Below are positions 1 through 20,021 of a stretch of 64,000 nucleotides of DNA, piece by piece. Below the pieces are notes generated by a model. The model did not search any database, was not told where the DNA came from, and worked only from the letters and a program-made list of their open reading frames with translations. Each line of letters begins with the position of its first letter. The first letter of the stretch is position 1. The stretch comes from Candidatus Binatia bacterium (GTDB taxonomy: Bacteria > Desulfobacterota > Binatia > HRBIN30 > CADEER01): positions 26,688 to 90,687 of the forward strand of contig JBFXHX010000011.1 of NCBI GenBank assembly GCA_050176585.1. The letters run 5' to 3'. Both the position numbers and the translations under genes were made by a program.

Positions 1-1
1 C

Positions 2-106
2 ATCAATCCGCCACTGGTGCTGACGGAACAGGAAGCGCGCGACGGCGTCGCGATCCTCGACGAAGTATTCGCCGAAATCGAACGCGACGGCCGCTACCGG
101 GCATGA
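2..106 (+). CDS. 3' end (34 codons) of a class-III (ArgD/GabT-like) aminotransferase; the gene starts upstream of the window
   Basis: Frame 2 reads ...NPPLVLTEQEARDGVAILDEVFAEIERDGRYRA*, a typical class-III aminotransferase C-terminus. The stop TGA at 104-106 overlaps the ATG of the next gene (ATGA). Confidence 0.6.
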   Translation: MNPPLVLTEQEARDGVAILDEVFAEIERDGRYRA

Positions 107-1143: not shown

Positions 1144-1156
1144 ACGCCGCCGCGAC

Positions 1157-2326
1157 ATGGACACCACCCCGGCACCGTGCAACTGTACGGCGGTCATCCT
1201 GCCGCCGGCCGCGATGAGCTTTCATCCCGTGGCCGGGCTCCCGCTGATCCAGCGCGTGGCGCTCAGCGCGCTGCGGGCCGGGTTTGATTCGGTGGTGGCA
1301 CTGGCGCCGTTCGAGGCCGCGCGCCTGCGCGCGGTGTTCGCCCGCGACGCGCGCACCGCGGCGATCCCGGTCGTCGCCGATGCCCGGGACAGCCTGATCG
1401 CGACCGACCGCGTGGCCCTCGTTCCGTCCGACTGCGTGCTGACCACCGGCGCGCTGCAGCGCGTGCGGAGCGCGCACTTGAATGGCCGCCCCGTCGCCTT
1501 CGGCTCGGCGGGCGACGGCATCGTCGTCGGCCCGCGGGCGAGCTTGACGGCGAGCGGCGGCTGCGTCGCCTTCGAGGGCGCTGCGGAGCGCGGCGCCTTG
1601 GCCGGCGAGCTGTGCGTCCGGGTGTCGGACCCCGCCTCCGCCGCGGCGGCCGAGCGCGCACTGCTCGCCACACTCGGCTCGCCGAGCGACGGCCCGATTG
1701 CGCGCTTCGACCGCGCGCTCTCGACGCGGATCAGTCGCTATCTGGTGCGCACGCCGCTGCGGCCGAACCACATCACCACGATCGGCACGTGCACCGGTTT
1801 CGCGGGCGCTTGGGCGCTTGCGCAGGGCACCTACCTCTCCGGCGTGCTCGGCACGCTGCTGTTCTGGGTCGCCGTGATCATCGACGGCTGCGACGGCGAG
1901 GTAGCGCGCCTGAAGTTCCAGGAATCCCGGCTGGGCTATTTGTACGACATCACCACCGACAACCTGGTGCATGCCGCCATCTTCTTCGGCATCGGCGCCG
2001 GCCTGTATCGCGCCGATCCGACGCAGCCGTTCCTCGCGCTGGGGGCGCTGCTCGTAGGCGGGCTGATCTGCGCCACGGCCGCGACGATGACGTTGCTCGT
2101 GCCGGAGTCGCCGGCTGGACAGGCGCCGGCACGGACGGCGCGCGGCCGCTGGCGTCAGCGGCTGCTGCGTGGGTTCGAGGCGCTGATGAACCGGGATTTC
2201 GCCTACCCCTTGTTCGGCTTGGCGTTGCTGGGCCGCCTGGACTGGTTCCTCTGGGGCGCGGCGTTCGGCACGTACGTATACGCAGCCGCTCTCGTGCTCG
2301 TGTACCGATGGCGAGAGGCGGACTAG
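1157..2326 (+). CDS. Bifunctional nucleotidyltransferase-like / CDP-alcohol phosphatidyltransferase (IPCT/DIPPS-like) membrane enzyme
   Basis: The C-terminal half carries a complete CDP-OH-P-transferase signature, D-G-x2-A-R-x8-G-x3-D-x3-D (IDGCDGEVARLKFQESRLGYLYDITTD), plus several TM helices. The N-terminal ~200 aa is MobA/IPCT-like (AVILPPAAMSFHPVAGLPLIQ) but its G-x-G-x-R loop is degenerate. Start placed at MDTTPAP, 14 nt after the upstream stop. Confidence 0.75.
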   Translation: MDTTPAPCNCTAVILPPAAMSFHPVAGLPLIQRVALSALRAGFDSVVALAPFEAARLRAVFARDARTAAIPVVADARDSLIATDRVALVPSDCVLTTGALQRVRSAHLNGRPVAFGSAGDGIVVGPRASLTASGGCVAFEGAAERGALAGELCVRVSDPASAAAAERALLATLGSPSDGPIARFDRALSTRISRYLVRTPLRPNHITTIGTCTGFAGAWALAQGTYLSGVLGTLLFWVAVIIDGCDGEVARLKFQESRLGYLYDITTDNLVHAAIFFGIGAGLYRADPTQPFLALGALLVGGLICATAATMTLLVPESPAGQAPARTARGRWRQRLLRGFEALMNRDFAYPLFGLALLGRLDWFLWGAAFGTYVYAAALVLVYRWREAD

Positions 2327-2333
2327 CACCGCG

Positions 2334-3416
2334 GTGGAGTCCGGCGCGCCGCGCCCGCTGAACCCGTTGGCGCGACCGCTCGCCACCCTCACGCCCATGT
2401 CGGACGGCGTCTCGCTCGCTGCGCCGCGCACTGCCGCGCGGCTGATGATGTGGATCGAGCGCGGCCTGCTGCTGGGCGGCGTAGTGCTGTTCGCGTTCCT
2501 CGTCGAGCGACTCGGAGCGGCGGACGTATGGGCGAACCTGCAGCTGATCGGGTGGGGCTTCGTCCTCGTCTTCGCGCAGGAAGGGCTCGCGTTCGTCTTC
2601 AATACCATCGGCTGGTCGTTCGCCTTCCCGAAGCCCCGCAAATGTACCCGGTTTTCGCAGCTCGTCGCCGCGCGCCTCGCCGGTGAGGCGATCAACAACG
2701 TGACGCCGACGGCGACGATTGGCGGCGAAGTCGTACGGGCGCGCATGATTACCGAGACCTGCGAGTCGCATGTCGCCTGGGCGTCGGTTGCGGTGGCCAA
2801 GTTGGCCCAGACCGCCGCCCAGATGCTGTTCGTGTTTACCGGGCTCGTCCTCCTCGTGCGCGACGTGGAGCTGCCCGCCGGCTATCGGCAGGGCCTGTAT
2901 GCCGGTCTCGCCGCCATCAGCGCGGGGCTCATGCTCGGCATCGCTCTGCAGCGCCGCGGCATGTTCGGCGCCGCCGTGCGGCTGGCGACTCGTCTCGGCG
3001 TGCGCGTGCCCCAGGCGCTGCGCGAGCACGTCACCCGCCTGGATGCGGAAATCGCCCGGGTCTACGCGGAACCGAAGGAGTTCGCCGCCTCCATCGGCGC
3101 CTTTTTCGCCGGCTGGTGCATGGGCGCTGTCGAAGTGTACATCGTCATGTACTTGCTCGGCTTGTCGCCGACGTGGGGACAAGCCGTCACCGTCGAGGTG
3201 CTGTCCGTGGCTATCGATGCGCTCTTCTTCTTCGTGCCGGCCAAAGCCGGCGTTCAAGAAGGCGGGAAGGCGTTGATCTTCCAGCTCATGGGTCTCGACC
3301 CGGGCAAGGGGCTCGTGCTCGGCATCGTGCGGCGGTTGCGCGAGCTGAGCTGGTCGCTGGTCGGCCTGGTGGTGCTGGCGGTGCACCAGTCGCGCGCGCG
3401 GCGCAAACGGGCATGA
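2334..3416 (+). CDS. Flippase-like polytopic membrane protein (lysyl-PG synthase TM-region / UPF0104 family)
   Basis: 360-aa, about 8 TM protein with a GTG start 8 nt after the upstream stop. Its composition and topology are typical of flippase-like domain proteins found next to glycosyltransferases. The stop overlaps the next start (ATGA at 3413-3416). Confidence 0.65.
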   Translation: MESGAPRPLNPLARPLATLTPMSDGVSLAAPRTAARLMMWIERGLLLGGVVLFAFLVERLGAADVWANLQLIGWGFVLVFAQEGLAFVFNTIGWSFAFPKPRKCTRFSQLVAARLAGEAINNVTPTATIGGEVVRARMITETCESHVAWASVAVAKLAQTAAQMLFVFTGLVLLVRDVELPAGYRQGLYAGLAAISAGLMLGIALQRRGMFGAAVRLATRLGVRVPQALREHVTRLDAEIARVYAEPKEFAASIGAFFAGWCMGAVEVYIVMYLLGLSPTWGQAVTVEVLSVAIDALFFFVPAKAGVQEGGKALIFQLMGLDPGKGLVLGIVRRLRELSWSLVGLVVLAVHQSRARRKRA

Positions 3417-4306
3417 GCGCGCGCCGCCAGCTGATCGTCAGCGCCGACGATTTCGGCATGTCGCGGGGCGTCAATGCCGCGATCATGCGCGCCCATCGCG
3501 AGGGCGTGCTCACGCAGGTGAGCTTGATGGTTCGCGGACGGGCGGCCGCGGAAGCGGTCGAGCTCGCCCGCAGCACGCCGTCGCTGAGCGTGGGCCTGCA
3601 TCTCACGCTCGTGCAGGGATATTCCGCGGCACCGAGCGGCGCGGTGCCGCTGCTGGCCGGCGCCGATGGCCGCTTGCGCCGCGATCCCGTGTGGGCCGGC
3701 ATGCGTTATTTTTTCACTCCCGGGGCGCGCCGGCAGATCGAGCGCGAGGTCGTGGCCCAGCTCGAGGCGTTCGCGGCCACCGGCCTGCAGCTCTCGCACG
3801 TCGACGGGCACTTGACGATTCACATGCACCCGATCGTGCTCGGCGTGTTGCTCGATGTCGCGACGCGTTACCGCATCCGCGCGATCCGCCTCTCGGGCGA
3901 CCCGCTCGTCCCGGCGCTGCGCTGGGACGGGCGCCATCTGGGGCGCAAGCTGTTCGAAGCCGGCGTGTTCGGCGGGCTGTCCCGCTGGGCGCTGCCGCAC
4001 GTGCGGCGCGCCGGCCTGCGCCATCCGGACCGGGTCTACGGCATGCACCAGAGCGGCCACGTGTCGGAGGACTACTGGTCGTATCTGCTGCCGGATCTGC
4101 CACCCGGAGTGAGCGAGGTATATTGCCATCCCGCGGTGCTCGACGATGAGGCGCAGCAGTGGCGGCCGGCCGAGTATGCCGGCGACGCCGAGCTCACCGC
4201 GCTCTGCAGCCCGCGCCTGCGCGCGGCGCTCGATGCCGCCGGCATCGAGCGCATCAGCTATCGGGATTTAGTGGAGCCGCGACAGAAATCTGGCCGCAAC
4301 TCCTAA
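3413..4306 (+). CDS. YdjC/ChbG/HpnK-family carbohydrate deacetylase
   Basis: MSARRQLIVSADDFGMSRGVNAAIMRAH... carries the YdjC-family DDFG motif and the HLTL/HVDGH metal-binding histidines. Confidence 0.8.
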   Translation: MSARRQLIVSADDFGMSRGVNAAIMRAHREGVLTQVSLMVRGRAAAEAVELARSTPSLSVGLHLTLVQGYSAAPSGAVPLLAGADGRLRRDPVWAGMRYFFTPGARRQIEREVVAQLEAFAATGLQLSHVDGHLTIHMHPIVLGVLLDVATRYRIRAIRLSGDPLVPALRWDGRHLGRKLFEAGVFGGLSRWALPHVRRAGLRHPDRVYGMHQSGHVSEDYWSYLLPDLPPGVSEVYCHPAVLDDEAQQWRPAEYAGDAELTALCSPRLRAALDAAGIERISYRDLVEPRQKSGRNS

Positions 4307-5946
4307 CCGCCGAACCCGTCTAGCGCCGCGTTCGATCCCGGCCGCATGTCATAGACCTCGGCATAGTTGATGTCGCGGATCGACACGGTACCGACCAGGT
4401 GCCCGCGGCGACGGATGTCCGCCACGTCCTGCTCGGGGAGCCGTTGGCGCTGGCTGATGTACAGCACCACGTAGTCGGCCGCCTTCAGGTCCGGAATGGT
4501 GGTCCCGCACGGGAACGCGCTTCTGATCGCGTGGTACTTGAGCGCAATCTTCACGTCACAGCGCGGCGCCTCGCGCCGGCGAATCTGTTCGCCGGCGATC
4601 TCCAACCCCTCGCCCCAGCCGATGATCACGGCTCGCTCCGCTACGCGCGAACCGCCGAGCAGCGGATTGAAATACGCGAGCCCCCAAGGCGCGACCCACA
4701 CCGCGTGCGCCACCGCGAGCGCGACGGCCAGGGCGCCGGCCGCTGGCAGCCAGCGCCACCGAGCGCCGAGCCGCGCGCGAGCGCTCCGCACGGCGACGTC
4801 GGCGCCGAGCCCGACGGCGAGCGCGACGAGCGGCAGCACTACGACCGCATAGCGATCCATCTGCTTGGCGGCGCAGGATAAGACCGCCATCGGCACCGCG
4901 GCAATCGCGATCAGGCTCAGGACATGCCAGCGCTTGTCGCGCATGAGCGCGAGCGGAAGCAAAGCCAGGACGCCGAGCAGAAACCACGGCGTCATCCGCA
5001 AGGGGAGCGCCACGGCGTAAAACAGCGGGCCGGGCGTACCCGTGATGTGGCCGAGGAAAAATGTCTGATGCGGTGTAAGCGCAAGCTCTGCGGTGTCCAG
5101 CAAGAAACGGATCTGGTGCACGGGATCCGCCCAGATCGCCGGCCAGGTGAGCAGCGCGGCCACGAACCCCAAAGCCGCAGTCGCGAGCAACCGGACCGCA
5201 ACGCGCGGCTCGGCGCCGAGTGGACGGCCGTGCACCCGTCTGGCGCCGTGAAACAGCACGCCGGCCAGTAGCGCGGCAACCCCCAGCAGCAGCGGGAGCG
5301 CTGAGAGCTTGGTGAGCAACGCGCAGCCGAGCAGTGCGCCGCCGGCCGCAGCCAGCCCGCGCCGGCGATCGACGCGTGGCTCCGGGATGCCGAATGCCAG
5401 GAGCATGGCAAGCACACCGGCGGCGCCGAACAACCCGGTGAGCGCGTCGGTGTGGAATGCGGCCCCATGCGCGACCAGGAACGGCTCGGAGGCGAGCAGC
5501 GCGCCGGCCGTGATCGCCGCCACCGGGCCGGCCCATTGCCAGGCGAGAAAGGCAATCACGCCGACCAGCGCGGAGGTCGTCACCGCGACGCCGAGCTGGG
5601 CCCCGTGCAGCGCCTGCGGAGACACCGCGAACGGTTGCTGGCTGGGCGCGGCGAGCCCATACCGCACAGCGACCCAGCTCAGCGCTCGAGTGGCGTTGCC
5701 GATCCACATCGTGGTGACCCCCGGCATCGTCGCCTGCTGGCCGGTGGTCGCCGAAGCGGCGGCAAAATCCCGCCGCAAGATCGCGTCGCCGAACTGCTGC
5801 GTGCGCCGCATCCACAACGGCTCGTCCGCGGTCGAGTACCGGCCCGCGGTCTCGGCGCGCGGCACGAACGCGAGAATGGCCAAGGACGCCGCAACCAGCA
5901 CGGCAGCGCGCCTCGCGACCTGTCCGGTGGTGGTCCACGGGGTCAC
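4303..5946 (-). CDS. GT-C fold glycosyltransferase, ArnT/PMT-like (GT39/GT83), polyprenyl-phosphate-sugar dependent
   Basis: 547-aa polytopic membrane protein with the first-loop DE motif (STADEPLW) typical of ArnT/PMT transferases. Its 3' end overlaps the deacetylase 3' end convergently. Confidence 0.75.
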   Translation of the reverse strand: MTPWTTTGQVARRAAVLVAASLAILAFVPRAETAGRYSTADEPLWMRRTQQFGDAILRRDFAAASATTGQQATMPGVTTMWIGNATRALSWVAVRYGLAAPSQQPFAVSPQALHGAQLGVAVTTSALVGVIAFLAWQWAGPVAAITAGALLASEPFLVAHGAAFHTDALTGLFGAAGVLAMLLAFGIPEPRVDRRRGLAAAGGALLGCALLTKLSALPLLLGVAALLAGVLFHGARRVHGRPLGAEPRVAVRLLATAALGFVAALLTWPAIWADPVHQIRFLLDTAELALTPHQTFFLGHITGTPGPLFYAVALPLRMTPWFLLGVLALLPLALMRDKRWHVLSLIAIAAVPMAVLSCAAKQMDRYAVVVLPLVALAVGLGADVAVRSARARLGARWRWLPAAGALAVALAVAHAVWVAPWGLAYFNPLLGGSRVAERAVIIGWGEGLEIAGEQIRRREAPRCDVKIALKYHAIRSAFPCGTTIPDLKAADYVVLYISQRQRLPEQDVADIRRRGHLVGTVSIRDINYAEVYDMRPGSNAALDGFGG

Positions 5947-6074
5947 GCGCCGGCACGCTGCAAAACACAGCGCGGGAAAGCAACCTGCGCGTGCGATCGG
6001 TAGTGGGTCCGTTTGCTTCTCGGCGCAGGCTGGACGGACGTGAACCCCGCACGCGGCAGTGGCATATTGCCACC

Positions 6075-6500
6075 ATGCTGAAGACGCGGGTTCTGTTCCT
6101 CTGCACGGGCAATTCCGCCCGGAGCCAGATGGCCGAGGGCTTCCTGCGCCATCTGGCGGGCGGCCGCTTCGAGGCGGTCAGCGCTGGAATCAACCCAACC
6201 GTGGTCAACCCGCTCGCGATCAAGGCGATGCGCGAACTCGGAATCGACATCTCGGCGCAGCGGTCGAAGTCGGCGGGCAGCCTACTAGGCCAGCATTTTC
6301 CCTACGTCATCACCGTCTGCGACAAGGCCAACGAACGTTGCCCGATCTTCCCTGGCGTCGTGAAGCGGCTGCACTGGCCCCTGAGGGACCCGGCCGCCGC
6401 GACCGGAACCGAGGGTGAGCGCTCGGCGGTCTTCCGCGCCGTCCGCGACGAGATCCATCAGCGCGTGCGCGGGTTCATCGCTGCCCCTGCATGCAGCTAG
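6075..6500 (+). CDS. arsC: Arsenate reductase, thioredoxin-coupled LMW-PTP family (ArsC)
   Basis: The CX5R P-loop LFLCTGNSARSQMAEGF and the two downstream Cys (VCD...ERCP) match Bacillus-type ArsC. No arsB/acr3/arsR gene is adjacent. Confidence 0.8.
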   Translation: MLKTRVLFLCTGNSARSQMAEGFLRHLAGGRFEAVSAGINPTVVNPLAIKAMRELGIDISAQRSKSAGSLLGQHFPYVITVCDKANERCPIFPGVVKRLHWPLRDPAAATGTEGERSAVFRAVRDEIHQRVRGFIAAPACS

Positions 6501-6802
6501 CGCCGCAAACGGCTCGACGACGCCTCAAGCGTCCCCGCGATCCGGGTCCAGCTCGCCAAGCTGATCGGCCACATCGCCACCGGCAAGGTCGAGGATCAGC
6601 CGCCTCGTGGATCGAGCCCGACGGCGCGACATGGACTGCTGATCAGATCGCAGCGCTTCGTCAACCCAACATGTTCGACACAGCGACCGCACACGGACGC
6701 GAAAATATCCCGCACGATTCAAGTACGTGTCTCCGTGCGACGATTCCCGCTGCGCATTACAGACATCGGTCGATGTGCACCGAATTGAGAGATGGGCGCC
6801 TC

Positions 6803-6991
6803 TTAGCGGCGGCGGCGCCGACGCAGCTCGTCGAGCTGCATCTCGAGCGCCTTCTGCTGAATCGCGCGATCGCGCTCGGCGCGCTGCTCCGGCGTCATGC
6901 GATGGTTCAGATCTTCCCAGCGACGATACTTCGCCGCAGTGCGTGTCGCCGGCGCTGTCTGTCGGCGCACGGGCGGTGCCTTCGCCTTCAT
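6803..6991 (-). CDS. Small basic hypothetical protein (62 aa, Lys/Arg-rich N-terminus, C-terminal poly-Arg)
   Basis: MKAKAPPVRRQTAPATRTAAKYRRWEDLNHRMTPEQRAERDRAIQQKALEMQLDELRRRRRR. A consensus Shine-Dalgarno GGAGGAG lies 7 nt upstream of the ATG. No family recognised. Confidence 0.5.
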   Translation of the reverse strand: MKAKAPPVRRQTAPATRTAAKYRRWEDLNHRMTPEQRAERDRAIQQKALEMQLDELRRRRRR

Positions 6992-7367
6992 CGATGGGTC
7001 TCCTCCAGATATGCGAGCCACAGGCGCTCGGCGAATCGTACATATTGCCGAGCCACACCGCCGCATTCGACGCCTGCTCGACCACCAAGCTGCGCGCCAT
7101 CAATGGCGGCAGCTTTATCACCAGCTTCTGGCGGCGCCGGACGAACTTACCTGCCCCCCTTCTCCGCCGCAGGCATAATCTCCTCCGTGTTAGGCCGGCT
7201 GGCGATGACTCAAACCAAAATGACCGCTACCCTGCGGTCGAGCGCTTTTCGAGAGCGCGGCCCTTGCGCTACGTTGCCGGCGCGACGGAGTGCAGCATCC
7301 ATGCGCAGCGGAAAGACCAGCACCGGGGCCCCACGCGTACCAGACCTCGCGAGCCGGTGAGCATCGT

Positions 7368-8348
7368 TTGAATACCCGGGCTGACTCGACGCAGGTGCAC
7401 CTCTCGGCCGTCGTACCGCTCTTCGACGAAGAGCCCACGCTCGCCGACCTCTACGAGCGCCTAACCCGAGTCTTGCGCGCGCTCGGGGCGCCGTACGAGA
7501 TTTTGTTCGTCGATGACGGCAGCACCGACGGCGGCCCGGCGCTGCTCGACCGCCTGGCGAGCCAGGACCCCTGCGTGGGCGTGCTGCACCTGCGGCGCAA
7601 CTACGGCAAGTCGGCCGCTCTCGACGCCGGCTTTCGCGCCGCGCGCGGGCGGGTCGTCGCCACGCTCGATGCCGATCTTCAAGACCCGCCCGAGGAACTG
7701 CCCAAGCTGCTCGCGAAGCTCGAGGAGGGCTTCGACGCGGTGAGCGGCTGGAAACAGGGACGGCGCGACCCACTGCGCCGGCGCTTGGCGTCGCGCGTGT
7801 TCAACGCCGTGGTGCGCCGCCTCGCGCGCTTGCCACTGCACGACCTGAACTCCGGGTTCAAGGTGTACCGCGCGGAGGCATTGCACGAGCTTCACCTATA
7901 CGGCGATCTGCATCGCTACGTGCTCGTGTTGCTGGCCGGCAGCGGCTATCGCATCGGAGAAGTGGCCGTGCGCCATGCCCCCCGCCAGCACGGGCGTTCC
8001 AAATACGGTGTGGAGCGCCTGACCAACGGGTTCTTCGACCTGCTGACGGTGACGATGAACATCCGCTACCGCGCGCGCCCACTGCACCTGTTTGGTCTAG
8101 CGGGTCTCGGATTGGCGGGCGTTGGATTGGCCGTGCTGCTCTATTTGACCGTGCTGTGGTTCGTCGGCGAGGGCCCGATCGGCCACCGGCCGCTGCTGTT
8201 CCTCGGGCTGCTCCTCATGATGCTCGGCGTGCAGCTCATCAGCACGGGTTTGCTCGGCGAGCTGATCAACCGGCAGATACACCGCCAGGAGCCCTCGTAC
8301 GCGGTGCGCAACTTTGCCGCGCCGGGCAGCGCGCGCGGTGCGGACTGA
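7368..8348 (+). CDS. GT2 polyprenyl-phosphate glycosyltransferase (ArnC/DPM-synthase/GtrB-like) with C-terminal TM anchor
   Basis: LSAVVPLFDEE...ILFVDDGSTDG...DADLQDP is the GT2 DXD architecture. Two C-terminal TM helices resemble ArnC/GtrB. The start is uncertain: TTG 7368 or GTG 7395. Confidence 0.85.
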   Translation: MNTRADSTQVHLSAVVPLFDEEPTLADLYERLTRVLRALGAPYEILFVDDGSTDGGPALLDRLASQDPCVGVLHLRRNYGKSAALDAGFRAARGRVVATLDADLQDPPEELPKLLAKLEEGFDAVSGWKQGRRDPLRRRLASRVFNAVVRRLARLPLHDLNSGFKVYRAEALHELHLYGDLHRYVLVLLAGSGYRIGEVAVRHAPRQHGRSKYGVERLTNGFFDLLTVTMNIRYRARPLHLFGLAGLGLAGVGLAVLLYLTVLWFVGEGPIGHRPLLFLGLLLMMLGVQLISTGLLGELINRQIHRQEPSYAVRNFAAPGSARGAD

Positions 8349-8426
8349 GCACTTCGAGCCGGCGCGAGCGGCCGGGCGCGGCGCGCGGCGCAGCGGGGAC
8401 GGCCGGCTCGCCCCTGCGCGCGGCAC

Positions 8427-9029
8427 TCACCGCGCCGACGTTTCGCCGCACGCGCACGCCGCGTCCTCTGCCACCTGATCGCCCCACTGCACCCACCCGG
8501 GCCGGCGATAGCGCGCGAAAAGCTCCAGATACGGGGCCGGGCTGCACGATTCCACCACCGAGTAGAGCCGCTCCGGCTTGCGGGAGTGAGCGCGCTTGCG
8601 CTCGCACACGATATTCACCTGACGCCGGCCCGGCCACTGCGTGCGCAAGGAACCGCGCACGCCGAACAGTACCAACTCAGTGACGTTGCGAAAGTAGAAC
8701 CCCACGCCGCGCCCATCCGGCCCACCGTCGACGCGGATCTTGTACCAGACCAGATTCGCCTTGTACCGGAAGCCCCAGGCGGCCAGCACGTCCAACCCCC
8801 ACGGGATCAGCGCATTCGGCACCCAGAGGTACAGATGCGCGCGCGCAGCGGCCAACCCGCCGACTGGTAGCGCCGCGATATCGGTGACGGACATCGTCGG
8901 GTAGCGATGCAGGCGGCGGTGCTCCGGGGCGATCTTCCCGGTGCGGTTCTGGAACCGCCACGGCGGATCGGCGAGGATCGTTCCAAACGGTCCGTGCAGG
9001 GCGGCCAGTGAATCGGTGAGCGCGCTCAT
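8427..9029 (-). CDS. MT-A70 family N6-adenine DNA methyltransferase
   Basis: MSALTDSLAALHGPFGTILADPPWRFQN carries the DPPW catalytic motif. The SD GGGAGGTGGTG lies directly upstream of the ATG at 9029. The longer ORF from a TTG at 9137 was rejected. Confidence 0.8.
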   Translation of the reverse strand: MSALTDSLAALHGPFGTILADPPWRFQNRTGKIAPEHRRLHRYPTMSVTDIAALPVGGLAAARAHLYLWVPNALIPWGLDVLAAWGFRYKANLVWYKIRVDGGPDGRGVGFYFRNVTELVLFGVRGSLRTQWPGRRQVNIVCERKRAHSRKPERLYSVVESCSPAPYLELFARYRRPGWVQWGDQVAEDAACACGETSAR

Positions 9030-9133
9030 CACCACCTCCCGCCTGCTCGTCGCCAGGCGGCGAGCGAGGTGTCGATGCCATGCGCAGCACCAATTGCCAA
9101 GCGGGCCGGCGCTGGGCGGGTCACGCGCGCCGA

Positions 9134-9412
9134 TCAACCCTCGAGCTCGAATGGGAGCTGGTGCCGCTTCGCCGCATTACACGCGCGACAGGCGGGCACC
9201 ACGTTGCCCTTGGTCGAGCGGCCGCCGCGGATGATGGGCACGAGGTGGTCCATGGTCAGCGACTTGGCCCCGACCTGGGCGCCGCAATAGTGACAGATGC
9301 CCGGCGCGCACCGGCGCTTCCACCATGGGGAAGCGCGCAATGCGCGCGCTTTGACGCGCTCGCGTTTGATCGCCGCGTCGTCGACTTCGACGAGAAACCC
9401 ACCGCCGCTCAC
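9134..9412 (-). CDS. HNH endonuclease (small, phage-type)
   Basis: CHYCGAQVGAKSLTMDHLVPIIRGGRSTKGNVVPACRACNAAKRH is an HNH motif with a zinc-binding Cys pair. GTG start. It sits immediately upstream of the MTase. Confidence 0.75.
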   Translation of the reverse strand: MSGGGFLVEVDDAAIKRERVKARALRASPWWKRRCAPGICHYCGAQVGAKSLTMDHLVPIIRGGRSTKGNVVPACRACNAAKRHQLPFELEG

Positions 9413-9877
9413 CGGCTGAGGCTACGGGAGCGCGACCGCGCGGCGCAAGTGGGCTTCGTTGAGCTCACGGAGCGTCACCCATGTGCGCCGTGGGGACTGG
9501 CGCGCTCGGGAAAAGACGACGGGAGCCCCGACCCATTCTGAACATCACGACCAACGGCTGCGGTGAACGCCGCAGTGAGAAGGGAGGCTCTGGTCCGGCA
9601 ACGCGTCGGCGTCCACGCACGATTTCGGCGCTCACGCGAAGGAATGGTCGTCACCTGGGGAGTGACACGTGCTCGAGTGGTGACACTGGAGGGCGCCGCT
9701 CCCCAGCGTCGCGGCCATTGCCCTTCGCGACGAGCCTATCCGTTGGCGCTTTCCGCGGCCCGGCGCCGCGATCCGACAACAAGCGGGAGGGATGCACGCT
9801 CGTCTTTGAGGCCATTGCATGGCGCGCCATGGCAAGCGCGGAGAAGGGGTGCTCGCAATCTGCCGACCGCCTCACGC

Positions 9878-10348
9878 CTACCGGCCGGGCGGCGCCGTCG
9901 CGGCGGTGATCGCGATCTCGGCCAGCACGAAGTCCAAGCCCTTGTAGCGGCCGAGCATGCGCACGTGCGCGCCGGAGGGCGCCGTGCGGAAGCGGTCCAA
10001 TTCGTCCTTGCTGCCGCGCAGCAACAGTTGTTCGGGATATTGCTCGCTGCGGTTGAACAGGCTCATGCCCTCGGCCTGCGCCGTCTGCGCGCGCACGACG
10101 CCGAAGCGGCGAACCACGTCTCCAGCGCGAATCTGAATCGTGCCAAGCGTGTCCGCGCCTTCCGCGGGATCGACGAAGCCTTCCAGGCGCAGATCCTGCC
10201 CGAGCCCGAACGGCATCGGCCCAGCGGCAGCCGGCGCGGCAGCCAAGACGAGCACGAGCGCGGCGCTGGCCACTGACTCAGCGCCGAGCCGTCGGCAACG
10301 AAACGCAGCCCCCAACCGCGGACGGCGTTCAGGGCGGATTGCATTCAA
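9878..10348 (-). CDS. Hypothetical secreted protein (signal-peptide-like N-terminus)
   Basis: 156-aa ORF overlapping the protease stop by 20 nt. It has an Arg-rich n-region followed by [14 protein letters not shown]. No family recognised, and high-GC frame bias could also explain it. Confidence 0.35.
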   Translation of the reverse strand: MNAIRPERRPRLGAAFRCRRLGAESVASAALVLVLAAAPAAAGPMPFGLGQDLRLEGFVDPAEGADTLGTIQIRAGDVVRRFGVVRAQTAQAEGMSLFNRSEQYPEQLLLRGSKDELDRFRTAPSGAHVRMLGRYKGLDFVLAEIAITAATAPPGR

Positions 10349-12095
10349 AGCGCAACCGGTCGTAATCCGCGCGCGTCGCGCCCGACACGCGCATCCGAAT
10401 TTCCCCCCGGCCCGGGCCGCCGCCCGGCGGCCGCTCGACTACGAACGGGACCGGGCTGGAACAGGCATTCGCGCCCGTGAAGGGGAAGGCCGGCACTGCG
10501 AAAGCCAACGCCTCCGCGTTCGTGCGCTCGACGGTCCCCGGCGGCGCATCGAGGCGCGGGGCGATCATCGCAAGCTGCTCCAGCGGCTCCGGCACAGCGC
10601 AGTCGGCCAGCAGCGGATCGCGCATGTTCAAGCAGACGGACACGCCGAACGTACAGATGCCGGGCGTGGAGTCGCCGTCGCACAGCGGATCGTTGTCGGT
10701 GCAGGTCGCGGACGAATACGCGCGCGCGTCCACCGCCTCCGGCGGGAGAACACTGAATTCGAGCAGGCAGTCGCTGCGGCGTCCGCCGCCGCCGCGCACG
10801 AGCTCGGGCGCGCGCATCGCTGCCCCAAGCGCGGCAAACGCATCCACGCGGGGCGTGGTACGGCCGCTGCGCGGATCGAGCACGGGCGTGCCACTCTCGC
10901 CGAGCAGGGCGACGACCTGCTCCGCTCGCAAACCGGGCCGCGCGGACAGCAGCAGCGCCGCGGCCCCAGCTGCATGCGGCGCGGCCATGGACGTGCCGGA
11001 CTGCATGAAGAGCCCACCGCCCAAGCCGTCCGAGATGATGTCGACTCCGGGCGCCAGCAGATCCATGCCGCCTTTGTTCGTGAAGCTCGCGATCATATCG
11101 ACGTCGTTTACCGCGCCGACCGCAACCGCCCGCGAAACGCACGCCGGCGCGTTGACGGCGTTGGCGCGGCCGTTGTTGCCGGTGGCCGCGAACAACATCG
11201 CCCCGCGCTGCCAGAGCTGCTCGATCGCATCGGCGAACAGCTGATTGGTCGCGCACCCTTCCTGATCGCCGCAGTTGCGCTCACACCCCGGGGAGTACTG
11301 ACCCTGGCTGACCAGGCTCATGTTCACCACCCGGACATCCGAACGCTCGGCGGCGATCCAGTCGAGCGCGGCGATCCAGTCGGAGAGAAACCCCCGGTTG
11401 CGATCATCGAGCACCCGCACCGCGAGCAGTTCGGCGCCGGGTGCCATTCCCACCGGCGCCACGCGACCGCGCGACAGCGCGATGCCGGCGACATGTGGAC
11501 CGTGCGGGTCGGTGGTGGCGGCGCTGCCGGGGCCGGACGCGCGCGCTTCGCCGTTCGGGCAGCAGGGATTGCGCGAGAGGCCGCCGGAGATGCCACCGCG
11601 GCAGAAGCACTCCTCGTGCACGAGCGCATCGGCGATGTCGGGATGCGCCGCGTCGATGCCGTTGTCGACGATCGCGATCACGCTGCCCCTGCCGTCCACG
11701 CTGCGCGCGTGCACGCGCTCGGCGCGCACCTGCGGCACGCTGCCGCCGAGGGCGGCCGTGCCGAGCCCGTCCAGGTCGATGCGCTCCACGTCCGGGTTGC
11801 GCCGCAATTCGTCGAGCGCCGCGCGGGTGACCCGCGCCGCGAATCCGGGCACCGTCTGATACGCGTGCGTGACCTCTACGCCGTCGGCAATGGCGGCGAG
11901 CACGGCGGCGCGCCGGCGGCTCATCAGCGCTCCGCGTTCCGGAGCGGCACCGGGCGCCGGCGCGCGCAGGCGCACCACGACGGAGGCCTCGCCCAGGCGA
12001 TCCGCATCCTCTTGGGCCGCGCCGCTGACCACCGCGCCGCCTGCCGGACACACGAGCAACAACCCGAGCACGGCCAGCGCGATGCAGCAGAGCAT
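10329..12095 (-). CDS. Subtilisin-like serine protease (S8) with N-terminal signal/propeptide and Cys-rich C-terminal domain
   Basis: Signal peptide MLCCIALAVLGLLLVCPAGG; I9-like propeptide; catalytic triad VIAIVDNGID (Asp), HGPHVAGI (His), GTSMAAPHAAGAAALL (Ser). The C-terminal ~150 aa hold about 10 Cys. Confidence 0.9.
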   Translation of the reverse strand: MLCCIALAVLGLLLVCPAGGAVVSGAAQEDADRLGEASVVVRLRAPAPGAAPERGALMSRRRAAVLAAIADGVEVTHAYQTVPGFAARVTRAALDELRRNPDVERIDLDGLGTAALGGSVPQVRAERVHARSVDGRGSVIAIVDNGIDAAHPDIADALVHEECFCRGGISGGLSRNPCCPNGEARASGPGSAATTDPHGPHVAGIALSRGRVAPVGMAPGAELLAVRVLDDRNRGFLSDWIAALDWIAAERSDVRVVNMSLVSQGQYSPGCERNCGDQEGCATNQLFADAIEQLWQRGAMLFAATGNNGRANAVNAPACVSRAVAVGAVNDVDMIASFTNKGGMDLLAPGVDIISDGLGGGLFMQSGTSMAAPHAAGAAALLLSARPGLRAEQVVALLGESGTPVLDPRSGRTTPRVDAFAALGAAMRAPELVRGGGGRRSDCLLEFSVLPPEAVDARAYSSATCTDNDPLCDGDSTPGICTFGVSVCLNMRDPLLADCAVPEPLEQLAMIAPRLDAPPGTVERTNAEALAFAVPAFPFTGANACSSPVPFVVERPPGGGPGRGEIRMRVSGATRADYDRLRFECNPP

Positions 12096-12193
12096 TCATC
12101 CATTACACGGGGGCGCCCGCGCCATTGCAACTCCGATCTGCGCGGTGCGGCGCGCTTTGCACCGCACGGCGGCGCGCGTTAATGCCCGCGGCG

Positions 12194-13285
12194 ATGGCCA
12201 CCGAGCGGTCCGCGATCGCCGTCCTGGGCGCGACGGGCTTCACGGGCCGGCTCGTGGCCCACGCCCTGCGCGAGCGCCGCGCGCCGCTGCTGCTCGCCGG
12301 CCGGAGCCGATCCCGGCTCGAAGCGCTGGCGCGCGCGCTCGGCGGGGCGGATTTCGCGGTGGCGCGCGTGGAAGACTCCGCCTCGCTCGACGCGCTGGCG
12401 CGGCGCGCGCGGGTGCTGATCAACTGCGCGGGGCCGTTCGTGGATCTCGGCGAGCCCGTCGTGCGCGCCGCCATCGGCGCCGGTGCGCATTACGCGGATA
12501 CCACGGGCGAACAGCCGTTCGTGCACGACGTATTCGCGCACGATAGCTGGGCGCGAGAACGGCGGGTAGCCGTGATCCCCGCCCTGGCATTCGAGATCGC
12601 GCTGGCGGACTGCGCCGCCGCTCTGGCCGCGCGTGGCCTCGACGAGGTCGAAACGGTGGAGGTCGCTTACGCCGTGCGGTTCCACGCGAGCCAGGGCACC
12701 AAACGGTCCGCCCTGCGCATGCTCGAGCGGCGCGGGCTCGGCTACGGCGACGGCCGATGGGTCGAGGAAGCACCGGGGCATCACTCGGCCGTGGTCGAGC
12801 TGCCGCTCGGTCGCCGGGCGGCGGTGAGTTTTCCGGGCGCGGAGGTGGTCACGATCCCGCGCCACATCGCCGCCCGCACCGTGCGTGCGCTCATGTGCGT
12901 TCCGCGGGGGGTCGCGACCGTCGCACACGTGCTCGGGCCGGCGCTGCCGGCGCTCGCCAGCTCTCCGCTGGGCGCGCTCGCGCGACGCTGGCTCGGCAGC
13001 GGCACGGCCGGCCCGGACCTCGCGACGCGCCGCCGGGACACCTTCGTGATCGCCGTCGACGTGCGCGGCCGGCGCGCCGGATCCGCCGCGGCTCGTCGGG
13101 TCATGGTCACCGGCTGTGATCCATACGCCCTGACCGCCGCGATCGCGGCGCAGGGAGCCATATGGCTCGCCGGCGGCGAGCACCGCTGCAGCGGCGTGCT
13201 GTCTCCGGCGATGGCATTCGATCCCGCGCGCCTGTTGGATGCCACGACGTCAAACAGCGTGGTGTATACGGAATCGGACATGTGA
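12194..13285 (+). CDS. Saccharopine dehydrogenase-like NAD(P)-binding oxidoreductase
   Basis: IAVLGATGFTGRLVAHAL Rossmann motif and the overall length fit the family. Confidence 0.7.
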   Translation: MATERSAIAVLGATGFTGRLVAHALRERRAPLLLAGRSRSRLEALARALGGADFAVARVEDSASLDALARRARVLINCAGPFVDLGEPVVRAAIGAGAHYADTTGEQPFVHDVFAHDSWARERRVAVIPALAFEIALADCAAALAARGLDEVETVEVAYAVRFHASQGTKRSALRMLERRGLGYGDGRWVEEAPGHHSAVVELPLGRRAAVSFPGAEVVTIPRHIAARTVRALMCVPRGVATVAHVLGPALPALASSPLGALARRWLGSGTAGPDLATRRRDTFVIAVDVRGRRAGSAAARRVMVTGCDPYALTAAIAAQGAIWLAGGEHRCSGVLSPAMAFDPARLLDATTSNSVVYTESDM

Positions 13286-13492
13286 CGGCCATTTGTGAAT
13301 TTCTGATGTAGCCGCGGCACCCGTGGCCGCACGGCTTCGCGCAGCAATGCCCGGAGCGGTGCTGCGTGCCGCCACCACCCCGGTTCAACGCGAAAGCCCG
13401 CGAAGGCGTTTCATCGCTTCGGGTACGCCGCGTACCGTACCGCCATTGCACGTGGACGCCGGCCGTGAAAGCGTCGGCCAACGCTCACCGCC

Positions 13493-15121
13493 ATGGACCT
13501 CTTCTCCTCTCGCCGCATGGACCGCCCGCGCGACGCGCACCGCTCCATGGTGCTCGGGCGCAACGGCATGGTGTGCACGAGCCAGCCCCTCGCCGCCTTC
13601 GCCGCCGCCGAGGTCTTGCGCGGCGGCGGCAACGCGGTGGATGCGGCCGTGTGTGCGGCCGCGGTGCTGGGCGTGGTCGAGCCGTTCATGACCGGCATCG
13701 GCGGCGACTGTTTCATGCTCATCTGGCGCGCCGACGAACAGTGCCTGTACGGGCTGAACGGGAGCGGGCGCGCGCCGCGCGGCGCCACCTGCGCGGCGCT
13801 GGCAGCGCGCGGCCACACCGCCATGCCGAGCGAGGGTATACTATCGGTCACCGTGCCGGGCGCCGTGGACGCCTGGTGTGAGGCGCTGGCGCGGTGCGGA
13901 ACGCGCCCGCTGGGCGCGCTGTTGCAAGCGGCCATCGCGTACGCCGAGGAGGGCTTTCCGGTTAGCGAGATCATCGCGGCGCAGTGGCACCTCACGGCCG
14001 GCGCGCTGCAGACACCCGACGGCGTGCGGGCGTTCACCGTCGAGGGCCGCGCGCCGCGCACCGGCGAGGTCGTGCGCTTGCCCGGCCTCGCCCGCAGCCT
14101 GCGCGCGCTGGCCGCAGGCGGCCGCGACGCGCTCTACCGCGGTGAGCTGGGCCGGGCGATGGCCGACTGTTCGCGCGCGCACGGCGGCTTTCTCGACGAG
14201 GCGGACCTGGCCGAGCATACCTCGACGTGGGTGGAGCCCATCAGTACCGCGTACCGCGGCGTGCGCTTGTGCGAGCTGCCGCCGAATGGCCAGGGCCTGA
14301 CGGCGTTGCTCGCGCTGAACATCCTCGAGTGCTTCGATCCCGCAGCCCTCGCGGGCGAGCCGGATGCGCGCGTGCACGTGCAGATCGAAGCGCTCAAGCT
14401 CGCGTTCGCAGACCGCAACCGGTGGATCGCGGATCCCGAGCACGCCCGGATTCCCGTCGATGCGCTGCTCTCGAAGGACTACGCACAGGGCCGTGCCGCC
14501 TTGATCCGCCCCGACCGGGCATTGAAGCACGTGGCGCCGGGCGGCGTGAGCGCGGCGACCGACACCGTGTACGTGGCCGCCGCCGACCGCTTCGGCAATT
14601 TGGTGTCGCTGATCAACAGCCTCGGCCGGCCGTTCGGCTCCGGTGTGGTCGCCGGCGATACCGGCATCGTGCTGCAGAATCGCGGCGGCGGCTTCGTGCT
14701 CGATCCCGCACATCCGAACTGCATCGCGCCTGGCAAACGGCCATTCCACACGATCATCCCCGCAATGGTGCTGCGCGACGGCCGACCGCTGGTCGCGTTG
14801 GGCGTGATGGGCGCCCACATGCAGGCGCAGGGACACGTCCAATTGGTCCAACACCTGGTCGACGGCAGCTGCAACGTCCAAGAAGCGATCGAGCGCCCTC
14901 GCTTCAACTTCCTCGGCGAAGATCGCGTCGCGCTCGAAGCGCCGCTGCTCGCCGCCGCCCGCGAGGCGCTGGCGCGGCGCGGGCACGTGATCGAAGACGA
15001 ATCCGCCGCCCGGGGGCACGGCAATTTCGGCGGCGCACAGGCAATCGCCGTCGATCCGGTGAGCGGCGTCTACTGGGGCGGTTCGGATCCGCGCAAGGAC
15101 GGATGCGCAATCGGCTTCTGA
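13493..15121 (+). CDS. ggt: Gamma-glutamyltranspeptidase family protein (no signal peptide)
   Basis: GGNAVDAAVCAAAVLGVVEPFMTGIGGDCF plus the small-subunit region GNLVSLINSLGRPFGSGVVAGDTGIVLQNRG match the GGT fold. The start could be 13493 or 13517. Confidence 0.8.
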   Translation: MDLFSSRRMDRPRDAHRSMVLGRNGMVCTSQPLAAFAAAEVLRGGGNAVDAAVCAAAVLGVVEPFMTGIGGDCFMLIWRADEQCLYGLNGSGRAPRGATCAALAARGHTAMPSEGILSVTVPGAVDAWCEALARCGTRPLGALLQAAIAYAEEGFPVSEIIAAQWHLTAGALQTPDGVRAFTVEGRAPRTGEVVRLPGLARSLRALAAGGRDALYRGELGRAMADCSRAHGGFLDEADLAEHTSTWVEPISTAYRGVRLCELPPNGQGLTALLALNILECFDPAALAGEPDARVHVQIEALKLAFADRNRWIADPEHARIPVDALLSKDYAQGRAALIRPDRALKHVAPGGVSAATDTVYVAAADRFGNLVSLINSLGRPFGSGVVAGDTGIVLQNRGGGFVLDPAHPNCIAPGKRPFHTIIPAMVLRDGRPLVALGVMGAHMQAQGHVQLVQHLVDGSCNVQEAIERPRFNFLGEDRVALEAPLLAAAREALARRGHVIEDESAARGHGNFGGAQAIAVDPVSGVYWGGSDPRKDGCAIGF

Positions 15122-15490
15122 GCGCGCGGTGGCCCGCAGCCCGTACATAGCCGCTCGCCGCTCTGACCGACGCCTGCGCATTCAACGCTTTGAACGTCGC
15201 CCCCGGCGAAGAGGCGCGTTTGGGGCGCGGCGGCCGGCACGAGTCCGGCCGCTACAGCGGGTCCCCGCTGCATCCCGCCCGCGCAGCGGGTTGATCAGGT
15301 GATCAGCGACACGCTCGGGCGCCGCTGCGCTCAGTAAACGGCGCACATCATCGGCAACGATGGCAGTGCCGCGCCGCGCGCATGCGGATTTGTCGGCCCC
15401 GCGCGAGCTCGTGGCATGGTTTCCACGGGCATGTGCGCGGTGCGCATTGGCATCGCGGTTGCTGTGAACAGACGAGCCCGCGCGACGCGC

Positions 15491-15793
15491 ATGTCGCAAA
15501 CCGTGATCGTTGTCGAGGATGAGATCGGCTTCAACCGCAGCGCCGCCGTGAGCGTGCGCGTCTGGCGCACCGCGGCCGGAGCGCGCGAGCGTTGGTTCGG
15601 CTACGCCGGCAGCGTGGACGCCCTCGCGCTCGGCGCCGTCATGCAGTTGGTCGGACGGCTGATGGCGGCGAATCCCGGCGATTGGACTGTTGAGTTGAGC
15701 GCAGCGGGCACGCCTGGCGATCGGCCACACGGCTCGACGACGGGTGTTCCCTGCCCGGTCGACGTCCGCGCGCTATTGGCACTGCTCGCATAG
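15491..15793 (+). CDS. Doubtful small ORF (100 aa), no recognisable family
   Basis: MSQTVIVVEDEIGFNRSA... is the only non-Arg-rich ORF in the 745-bp gap 15122-15865. It has no SD and may not be real. Confidence 0.2.
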   Translation: MSQTVIVVEDEIGFNRSAAVSVRVWRTAAGARERWFGYAGSVDALALGAVMQLVGRLMAANPGDWTVELSAAGTPGDRPHGSTTGVPCPVDVRALLALLA

Positions 15794-15865
15794 ACCCACG
15801 GCTTCGCCATCGGCACACCGAGCGCCGATTGGCCGGTGGTCGGGCACGTGCTAGCCGTCCGCCAC

Positions 15866-16390
15866 ATGAGCCAAACGCGCGCGGTGTACACGGGTCGCAT
15901 CATCACGGTGACTCTCGAGGAGGCCGTCCTGCCGAGTGGCAAACGGGTGGAGTTGGAGATGATCCGCCACCCCGGCGCGGCGGCGATCGTCGCGCTGGAC
16001 GACGGCGATTGCGTCTCACTGGTGCACCAGTTCCGCCACGCGACGGGCGGATTCATCTGGGAAATACCGGCCGGCACCCTCGGCCGCAGCGAAGCGCCGG
16101 AGGCATGCGCCCGGCGCGAGCTGCAAGAGGAAGCCGGCCTGGTCGCGCAGCAATGGACGCCGCTTGGCCACATCTTCACCGCGCCGGGATTCTGTGACGA
16201 GCGCATCCACCTGTTTCTGGCGCGCCAGCTGTCCCCCGCGCCGGCCCAGCTCGATGCGGACGAGGAGCTGACCCCCGCGCGGGTTCCGTTGAGAGAAGCC
16301 TTGGCGATGGTGCGCCGCGGCGATATTTGCGACGCCAAATCGATCGCCGGCTTGCACCGCGCCGCGATCGAGCTCGGGCGGATCAGCTAG
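15866..16390 (+). CDS. NUDIX hydrolase (ADP-ribose pyrophosphatase-like)
   Basis: Nudix box GX5EX7REUXEEXGU: LGRSEAPEACARRELQEEAGL. Confidence 0.8.
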   Translation: MSQTRAVYTGRIITVTLEEAVLPSGKRVELEMIRHPGAAAIVALDDGDCVSLVHQFRHATGGFIWEIPAGTLGRSEAPEACARRELQEEAGLVAQQWTPLGHIFTAPGFCDERIHLFLARQLSPAPAQLDADEELTPARVPLREALAMVRRGDICDAKSIAGLHRAAIELGRIS

Positions 16391-16408
16391 CGGCGCGCGC
16401 CCGAGCGC

Positions 16409-17737
16409 CTAGGCAACGGACGGCGCGAACTCGGCGGGGCGGCTGGCGGCCGCCGCGGCACTGCGGGCCATCGGCACCCAGAGCCGGAACCAGGCGCCCC
16501 GCGTCTGCGCGGCGTCAAGCGTGAGCTCGCCGCCCATCGCGGTGGCGATGGCGCCGGCGATGTAGAGGCCGAGGCCAGTGCTGCGGCGGCCGGCGACGTC
16601 GGTGCCGTCTTGAAACCGGGCGAACACCGTAGCCGCACGCTCGGGCGGAATCCCGGGGCCGCTATCGCCGACCACGGCGACGAGCCCGCCGTCCTCCGCC
16701 TCCACCCGCATCGTGATCACGCCATCGGCAGGCGTGTACTTGATCGCGTTGTCCAGCAGGTTCGCGAGGCAACGCTCCGTCTGCAGGGGATCGATCCACG
16801 CATCCGGCAACGGGCGCGCGAGCTCGAGTCGCACGTGCAGCCGTTTCAGCGCCAGCGCTGGACGGTATGCATCCACCAGATCTTCGACGATGCGGTCGAG
16901 CGAGACGCGCCGCGACACCACGCGCAGAGCGCGCGCTTCGATCTGATTCAACTCCAGGAAGTTGAGCGCGAGGGATTCCATCCGCTTCAAGCTCAGCACG
17001 ACCTGCCCGGCCAACTCGCGCGTCGGCGCTTCTCCCTCGGGCAGGCGGTCGTACAGGAGCGCGGCCGACTGCATGGCCAGCCACAGCGGCTGTTTCAGGT
17101 CGTGTGTGACCGTGGACAGCAGCTCGGTGCGCGCTTGTGCGCGCTCGCGCGCTTCGGCCATGGCGCGCTCCCGGCGGCGCACGCGGTCGATGAAGAAGCC
17201 GTAAAACGCGCCGGTGAGCAGGAGAAACGGCAAGCGCAACAGGATCGCCGGGCGCATGATCTCCGCGACGCCATTCTGGAGGAACAGATAGCCGAGGTAT
17301 GCCGCGGTGGTGAGAACCGGCGCCCAGAGATTCAGCCACGGGCGGTCGCTGATGGAGGCCAACAGGATGATGGTGAAGTAGAACACGAAGACGTCGGCTT
17401 CGACGTTCGGCGTCAGCAACAGCGCGCACGAGATCGCGCCGGTATCGACCAAGATGAGTGTGACGTCGAAGGCGGCGTGGCCGAGCAGGGGAAGCGGTAG
17501 GTACGCGATCAGGAGATTGCTCGCGATGTATGTGACCGCGAACGCGACCACCCCGGGCGGCGGCGCGCCGTCGGACGCGCTGAAGATCAGCAGGTAACTG
17601 ACCGCGAGAGTCAGCCCGGTTCGCACCAGCACCAGAATGCGCCGGCGCTCGCGCAGCGCGGCGGCGTCAGCGGCGTCTTGTAGAGCAGCGGGTGAGCCGA
17701 GCGGCGGCGCGGCGGATGCGGCGTTGGGCGCGGACAT
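16409..17737 (-). CDS. Sensor histidine kinase with polytopic (about 6 TM) N-terminal membrane sensor domain; no adjacent response regulator
   Basis: H-box LSTVTHDLKQPL; HATPase_c N/G boxes (NLLDNAIKYT, VVGDSGPGIPPE, GLGLYIAG). Start at MSAPNAAS (17737); the 5' extension of the raw ORF overlaps the divergent ACAD. Confidence 0.8.
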   Translation of the reverse strand: MSAPNAASAAPPLGSPAALQDAADAAALRERRRILVLVRTGLTLAVSYLLIFSASDGAPPPGVVAFAVTYIASNLLIAYLPLPLLGHAAFDVTLILVDTGAISCALLLTPNVEADVFVFYFTIILLASISDRPWLNLWAPVLTTAAYLGYLFLQNGVAEIMRPAILLRLPFLLLTGAFYGFFIDRVRRRERAMAEARERAQARTELLSTVTHDLKQPLWLAMQSAALLYDRLPEGEAPTRELAGQVVLSLKRMESLALNFLELNQIEARALRVVSRRVSLDRIVEDLVDAYRPALALKRLHVRLELARPLPDAWIDPLQTERCLANLLDNAIKYTPADGVITMRVEAEDGGLVAVVGDSGPGIPPERAATVFARFQDGTDVAGRRSTGLGLYIAGAIATAMGGELTLDAAQTRGAWFRLWVPMARSAAAAASRPAEFAPSVA

Positions 17738-17923
17738 GCGGTGACGGCGGTTATGCACGATGCGTGCCGCTGAATCCGAACTGGGGTCAGACCTAGCCGC
17801 ACCGGCCGCATGCGAACTGACCGGTGAACCGTGCGTTGCCGCAGCACTGCCCGTGTGTCGAAACAATGACGCGCGGCGCCCGGCGCATTGACCCCCCCGC
17901 CCCCGCGGGATAGCGAGGGCCGC

Positions 17924-19966: not shown

Positions 19967-20021
19967 TCGCGCGGCGCGCCGTTGGTGCGCGACCCAGCCG
20001 AAACTGGTCTCCCCAGGCCGG

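Follow-up and report, generated by a model that had tools for sequence, protein, structure and literature searches.

A Gmet_0936-type HNH nuclease gene and a predicted solitary MT-A70 methyltransferase gene, very probably adjacent by chance in one Binatia lineage

Phages encode small HNH proteins that pair with terminases in DNA packaging, such as HK97 gp74 and the HNH protein of GVE2. The HNH-type Type II restriction enzymes Hpy99I, PacI and KpnI carry extra recognition and dimerisation elements (e.g. residues 1–105 of Hpy99I) and have a cognate methylase. Hpy99I is also the closest structural neighbour of PDB 4H9D, which is Gmet_0936 of Geobacter metallireducens GS-15, and 4H9D lacks the DNA-binding and dimerisation elements of the Hpy99I N-terminus (Xu et al., PMC3765158). 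No methyltransferase gene is adjacent to Gmet_0936, E. coli cells expressed the protein strongly, and no apparent digestion pattern was obtained with it in Mg2+ buffer (Xu et al. 2013, PMC3765158). In Mn2+ it showed weak, non-specific nicking, which was somewhat stronger on acid- or heat-damaged DNA; alone it is not a Holliday-junction resolvase, and the authors proposed that it may act in repair or recombination alongside an unknown partner (PMC3765158). The MT-A70 methyltransferases of BglII-like Type II restriction-modification (R-M) systems belong to the prokaryotic radiation that gave the eukaryotic METTL3/Ime4 (Iyer, Zhang and Aravind 2016, PMC4738411).

We analysed a locus at which a small HNH gene lies upstream of an MT-A70 gene on the same strand, both open reading frames being intact (Table 1). 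It belongs to a 64-kb stretch of DNA with about 70% GC, called the window below. A previous reading of the letters alone, here the sequence-only reading, had called both domains correctly, as Pfam matches and intact motifs confirmed, and had rightly set the two genes between envelope genes and a subtilase: a GT2 glycosyltransferase gene lies on one side, and a 155-aa gene with an S8 subtilase gene on the other.

Table 1. Positions of the two genes, their spacer and the neighbouring features in the window.
Feature	Position	Strand	Remarks
HNH gene	9134-9412	minus	92 aa, GTG start
MT-A70 methyltransferase gene	8427-9029	minus	200 aa counted from ATG
HNH/methyltransferase spacer	9030-9133	minus	104 nt, HNH stop codon to methyltransferase ATG
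S8 subtilase gene and 155-aa gene	9878-12095	minus	conserved block containing the HNH gene in related genomes
Lineage-specific block between the HNH/methyltransferase genes and the YdjC cluster	4303-8348		absent from related Binatia loci where HNH abuts YdjC
GT2 glycosyltransferase gene	7368-8348	plus	convergent with the methyltransferase gene
Low-molecular-weight phosphatase-like gene	6075-6500	plus	
547-aa multi-pass membrane protein gene	4303-5946	minus	
62-aa ORF	within 4303-8348		

Judged by its sequence, the HNH gene is a full-length Gmet_0936 orthologue, predicted to encode a stand-alone small HNH (His-Me finger) nuclease. The protein matched Pfam HNH (E = 1e-11) and HNH_5 (E = 1.5e-11), and its CHYC...DH...N...CRACN motifs are intact. 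The HNH family profile matched PDB 4H9D over the full length (E = 1e-41; profile positions 5–92 against chain residues 3–90), and the window protein and Gmet_0936 share 60% pairwise identity over 86 aa. The zinc ribbon CxxC...CxxC (C40, C43, C75, C78) and the catalytic residues D55-H56, N70 and N79 correspond to Cys38, Cys41, Cys73 and Cys76 and to Asp53, His54, Asn68 and Asn77 of Gmet_0936. An alignment of 37 of the best database matches to the HNH protein, from which the profile was derived, was conserved end to end, comprising a basic N-terminal helix, two CxxC pairs, D-H, N and N; C40, C43, C75, D55, H56 and N70 were invariant, C78 and N79 nearly so, and all of these residues are present in the window protein. 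Beyond the HNH core, members of the family carry a basic N-terminal segment that is nearly invariant (F..V....RER.KAR.LR.S.WWKRR) and that phage HNH proteins do not have.

Searched against 5.8 billion proteins, the HNH protein gave 691 matches, and the best 120 of these 691 were almost all 89–133 aa long and 67–82% identical. An exhaustive profile-free search gave about 250 clusters (50% identity) at E ≤ 1e-10, most of the 150 listed being 72–147 aa in length. The Gmet_0936 family is strongly conserved and, with carriers in at least 565 species genomes (one genome per species scanned), large; these carriers include Binatia, Desulfobacterota, Myxococcota, Nitrospirota, Methylomirabilota and others. 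Two contigs, assigned to a 'Klebsiella pneumoniae' MAG (L017) and an 'Enterobacteriaceae' MAG (L035), carry a Binatia/Deltaproteobacteria-type HNH at 70–75% identity and are probably mis-binned.

The window HNH protein resembles Gmet_0936 in its size, its [CxxC]2 zinc ribbon, its D-H/N/N catalytic residues and its encoding by a stand-alone gene. The neighbours differ, with RNase HI near Gmet_0936 and the subtilase and 155-aa genes at the window HNH gene, and the family has no companion methylase, the window lineage with its MT-A70 gene downstream being the sole exception. With Hpy99I, PacI and KpnI the protein shares the catalytic fold; unlike them, it has within its 92 aa no recognition domain, and it has no co-occurring methylase. 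It aligns end to end with 4H9D and carries no sequence-recognition element of the kind required of a restriction enzyme.

The MT-A70 gene is a predicted solitary N6-adenine DNA methyltransferase gene. Its product matched Pfam MT-A70 (PF05063) over profile positions 1–172 of 172 (E = 1.2e-26; 94.2 bits, cutoff 23.9), the generic PADLOC Type II methyltransferase model PDLC03221 (MTase_II; 2e-88) and the phage family phrog_359 (6.5e-54). The DPPW motif is at residues 21–24, within ILADPPWRF (residues 18–26), close to the N-terminus in a permuted order. Its D, P, P and W were invariant in the homologue alignment, and all family-invariant columns are kept in the window protein. More than 8000 homologues were found, many of them 65–80% identical, in Binatia, Planctomycetota and Deltaproteobacteria, and the window protein is 62–80% identical to many bacterial members. 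This high identity across phyla indicates that the family moves horizontally, apparently with phages included. The near-N-terminal DPPW, the kept invariant columns and the 62–80% identity are likenesses to the methyltransferases of BglII-like R-M systems, but those systems have an endonuclease gene, and the window methyltransferase gene has none, either adjacent or elsewhere in the window. Both genes of the pair are additional members of already known families.

We then compared the gene neighbourhood with that of other HNH loci. The window is 99.9% identical to L001 and L002, contigs of Candidatus Binatia MAGs, and MT-A70 lies beside HNH in these two alone, which are the window's own population. 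By tblastn, the window methyltransferase was compared with 80 HNH loci at species level, each with up to 8 kb on either side, and with 5 further Binatia loci with 6 kb of flank. At none of these 85 loci from other lineages did the flanks, which reached 8 kb at most, contain an MT-A70 near the Gmet_0936-type HNH. L003–L007, L008 (same contig as L180), L010 and L011 all have the S8 subtilase, the 155-aa gene and HNH in this order, and HNH orthologues at 77–81% identity share the locus in relatives that have no methyltransferase there. Among the relatives, L180 has the most similar HNH (80% identity), and all genes upstream from Lactamase_B to the subtilase are common to it and the window. After the HNH gene, most Binatia relatives have a convergent YdjC/LPG-synthase/CDP-alcohol phosphatidyltransferase cluster, L180 has a DAO oxidoreductase, and the window has MT-A70, GT2, the 62-aa ORF, the low-molecular-weight phosphatase-like gene and the 547-aa membrane protein, followed by YdjC. 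Since the upstream order is kept and the downstream genes vary, the HNH gene belongs to the upstream block, and the methyltransferase gene sits at a synteny breakpoint just downstream of it. When the DNA downstream of the HNH stop codon was aligned across relatives in search of an insertion junction, similarity stopped at the stop codon. The block at 4303–8348 may be a lineage-specific addition to an envelope-lipid modification cluster.

The sequence-only reading had named two observations that would speak against it, a disrupted HNH frame and a pair conserved in syntenic position across the clade. The HNH frame is intact, and HNH alone is syntenic, in relatives without MT-A70. A 109-aa 'truncated' methyltransferase beside the intact HNH gene of L002 was considered as a case of methyltransferase loss and rejected; the short product is an artefact, both of assembly and of annotation, caused by a 100-N scaffold gap in this sister assembly (L002:10711-10810; GCA_050184825.1, JBFWZZ010000013.1).

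The wider HNH family gave a similar picture of its neighbours. The nearest-neighbour ORFs (n = 128) were diverse housekeeping genes, with no Pfam family represented in more than 5, and the 25 Pfam families that these ORFs matched most frequently included no DNA methylase family. A search for a conserved neighbour that would explain the function of the HNH family found none, the best clusters being RidA-like (19/82 loci) and macro domain (18/82 loci).

The usual partner of the methyltransferase family was assessed in a sample of 80 metagenomic loci of homologues with 62–73% identity, 66 of which were evaluable. A BglII-like endonuclease gene lay within 400 bp of the methyltransferase gene at 52 of the 80 loci; in 38 cases it was upstream and on the same strand, in 12 it was downstream and convergent, and the other 2 were arranged differently. 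Fourteen loci (14/66 evaluable) had no such gene, with at least 700 bp on both flanks, and at another 14 the flanks were too short for judging. A Gmet_0936-type HNH was found at 0/80 of these MT-A70 loci. The adjacent endonucleases matched Pfam Endonuc-BglII with E-values as low as 4e-44; gene calls around two homologues placed the Endonuc-BglII gene directly upstream, and in L088–L093 it overlaps the methyltransferase start. A sequence search of the BglII-like endonuclease against the PDB gave no match, so no target site was inferred. In the window itself, tblastn of the whole 64 kb detected no BglII-like endonuclease (PF09195; best E = 0.29), and the methyltransferase gene is tightly bracketed, with the HNH gene 104 nt and the convergent GT2 gene 78 nt away, so that there is no room for a further gene. 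The earlier description of the methyltransferase as an orphan is borne out by both observations, whereas the HNH protein, proposed at the same time as its partner, is not of the usual kind, which is a BglII-like PD-(D/E)XK endonuclease.

Taken together, these results suggest that the two genes are very probably functionally independent and adjacent by chance in one Binatia lineage. The HNH gene would be a chromosomal gene of the Gmet_0936 family passed on by vertical inheritance, encoding a single-domain zinc-ribbon nuclease of about 90 aa without a DNA-recognition domain. Going by the one in-vitro study of Gmet_0936, its product would most likely serve DNA repair or recombination as a non-specific accessory nickase dependent on a partner protein, and it would not be a restriction enzyme. 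The MT-A70 gene comes from a family that normally serves BglII-like Type II R-M systems as their modification subunit. The window member presumably methylates N6 of adenine in a short target of its own genome-wide, and as a solitary gene it may have been left over from a BglII-like restriction system or acquired without one.

A minimal Type II R-M or toxin-antitoxin-like pair, in which HNH would cut unmethylated DNA and MT-A70 would protect the host, is very unlikely by comparison with this evidence. The layout of the locus is of the kind that such a pair would have, with both genes intact on the same strand, 104 nt apart and with no terminator between them; the methyltransferase matches the PADLOC Type II model, and some of its relatives adjoin a different, 401-aa HNH_2-type protein, so that HNH–MT-A70 pairing is possible in principle. 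The co-occurrence counts (0/85 and 0/80 loci) argue against it, as do the natural relatives that have the HNH gene at the same locus (77–81% identity) and no methyltransferase. The 92-aa protein amounts to a catalytic core, and Gmet_0936 has little activity and no specificity and is well tolerated by E. coli cells that have no methylase for it (PMC3765158). Further points against the pair are the BglII-like identity of the usual partner and the HNH matches to PADLOC, which were weak and confined to the catalytic core (the best, to PDC-M01B at 4.7e-6, took in 53 residues of a model of 285 positions); HNH and methyltransferase do not match models of one PADLOC defence system. The proposal that the two genes form one unit, whether for phage packaging, as a minimal R-M or defence module or as a selfish element, finds no support in the same counts or in the syntenic HNH genes without MT-A70.

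The methyltransferase could instead belong to an active R-M system unrelated to HNH, with its endonuclease unrecognised or elsewhere in the genome. The endonuclease search covered 64 kb of the genome, and several homologues are paired with nuclease-like proteins that have no significant Pfam match (L181; L122, L143 and L151; L139 and L156). Against this, the partner lies within 400 bp wherever the family has one, the window gaps of 104 and 78 nt fit no gene, and no BglII-like sequence occurs in the window. We consider such a system unlikely, and the reading of a solitary methyltransferase gene beside an independent HNH gene is retained.

Solitary or decaying states of the methyltransferase family occur elsewhere. 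L098 has a shortened, 143-aa BglII-like endonuclease, and in L094 a Binatia copy of the methyltransferase lies beside toxin-antitoxin genes, with no full-length nuclease gene adjoining and a 36-aa GIY-YIG-like fragment alone. In L183 (5001–5594), a 74% identical MT-A70 homologue lies directly 3' of ftsZ, the last gene of a murC-murB-ftsQ-ftsA-ftsZ cluster, and no nuclease gene adjoins it; this is an unusual site for a solitary DNA methyltransferase. At L184:3372-5854 (also in L185 and L186), a 74% identical MT-A70 has a 128-aa BglII-like fragment upstream, and a 401-aa protein that weakly matches HNH_2 follows it without a gap, which may represent partner replacement in an R-M system.

Other neighbours of the methyltransferase family were also recorded. 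The closest homologue (80% identical, L181) has a 561-aa gene upstream without a Pfam match. Two further families without significant Pfam matches adjoin MT-A70 genes that have no BglII-like endonuclease, one of about 220–290 aa (L122:4628-5281, L143:2469-3338, L151:4638-5306) and one of about 400–425 aa (L139:1865-3142, L156:4664-5863), and one member of the latter gave a below-threshold PD-(D/E)XK match. Both families are candidate alternative restriction partners.

Mobility of the locus was examined through base composition, gene content and repeats. GC3 was 0.85 for the methyltransferase gene, 0.83 for the HNH gene and 0.81–0.86 for the neighbouring genes, so base composition gave no sign of recent transfer; with its motifs intact, the methyltransferase gene is compositionally at home. 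Among the Pfam families of genes within ±10 kb there were no phage, integrase or transposase families, all being metabolic or envelope-related, and a tRNA search of the 64-kb window found none, in agreement with the earlier remark that no integrase, terminase or tRNA is visible nearby. A search for direct or inverted repeats bounding a cassette yielded nothing but short, imperfect matches rich in GC, as DNA of 70% GC typically gives.

These data make it extremely improbable that the pair is a prophage or phage packaging remnant, with an HNH protein that served beside a terminase and a phage-borne methyltransferase. HNH domains are common in phages, and the window HNH shares with HK97 gp74 and the GVE2 protein a small size of about 100 aa and a zinc-binding His-Me finger core. 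Methyltransferases 63% identical to that of the window are present in a few phages (Nitratiruptor NrS-2 and NrS-3, Mesorhizobium Lo5R7ANS), and the match to phrog_359 fits the same origin. However, phage matches to the HNH protein were confined to the catalytic core, with at most 54% identity over 57–64% of the protein; only two were full-length, at about 32% identity, and the basic N-terminal helix of the Gmet_0936 family is not shared with the phage HNH proteins. The flanks are syntenic chromosomal genes with host-like GC3, and, unlike in phage HNH–terminase pairs, no phage gene family lies within ±10 kb. Of the 'stranded remnant' that the sequence-only reading had considered, the term may fit the methyltransferase gene by itself; it does not fit the HNH gene, which is a syntenic chromosomal gene.

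The locus calls for caution, as a nuclease gene and a methylase gene adjacent on the same strand mimic a restriction or selfish module, and comparative genomics points here to two independent genes. For annotation, the HNH product is best named a Gmet_0936-family small HNH protein, not McrA or a restriction enzyme, and the MT-A70 product a solitary Type II-derived m6A DNA methyltransferase, not 'RNA methylase IME4'.

We also examined the starts and the spacing of the two genes. A TTG at 9137 opens a longer methyltransferase ORF and overlaps the HNH stop codon as TTGA. This start, together with translational coupling, was rejected: homologues do not conserve the 36-aa extension, and a strong Shine-Dalgarno-like sequence (GGGAGGTGGTG) stands immediately 5' of the ATG at 9029; the NCBI-called start is the same ATG. 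The place and strand previously given for the methyltransferase ORF therefore stand, and the TTG start that went with them does not. A terminator scan of the spacer at 9030–9133 found no terminator-like site, so read-through from the HNH gene is possible. HNH and methyltransferase may thus be co-transcribed, with some regulatory coupling as a possible result; nothing points to a joint function. In a stronger version, a captured MT-A70 gene under the HNH promoter would form a new two-gene operon, in which m6A would modulate where or when the Gmet_0936-type nuclease nicks. We regard this as highly improbable; if true, it would show a nuclease-methylase partnership at its very beginning and offer the first functional handle on the Gmet_0936 family.

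The remaining observations concern the intergenic DNA. An Rfam scan of positions 1–20000 gave no match. Between the HNH start and the 155-aa gene lie 465 nt (9413–9877) without a convincing ORF, at a place where the two genes abut in L180. This stretch contains a terminator-like hairpin on the minus strand (9519–9536) and no remnants of the luciferase/flavin-reductase genes that L003 has there. At the other end of the pair, a GC-rich inverted repeat with 86% complementary arms (8316–8336 and 8362–8382) spans the GT2 stop codon, at the 78-nt GT2/MT-A70 gap; no T-run follows it, and it may be a bidirectional terminator.
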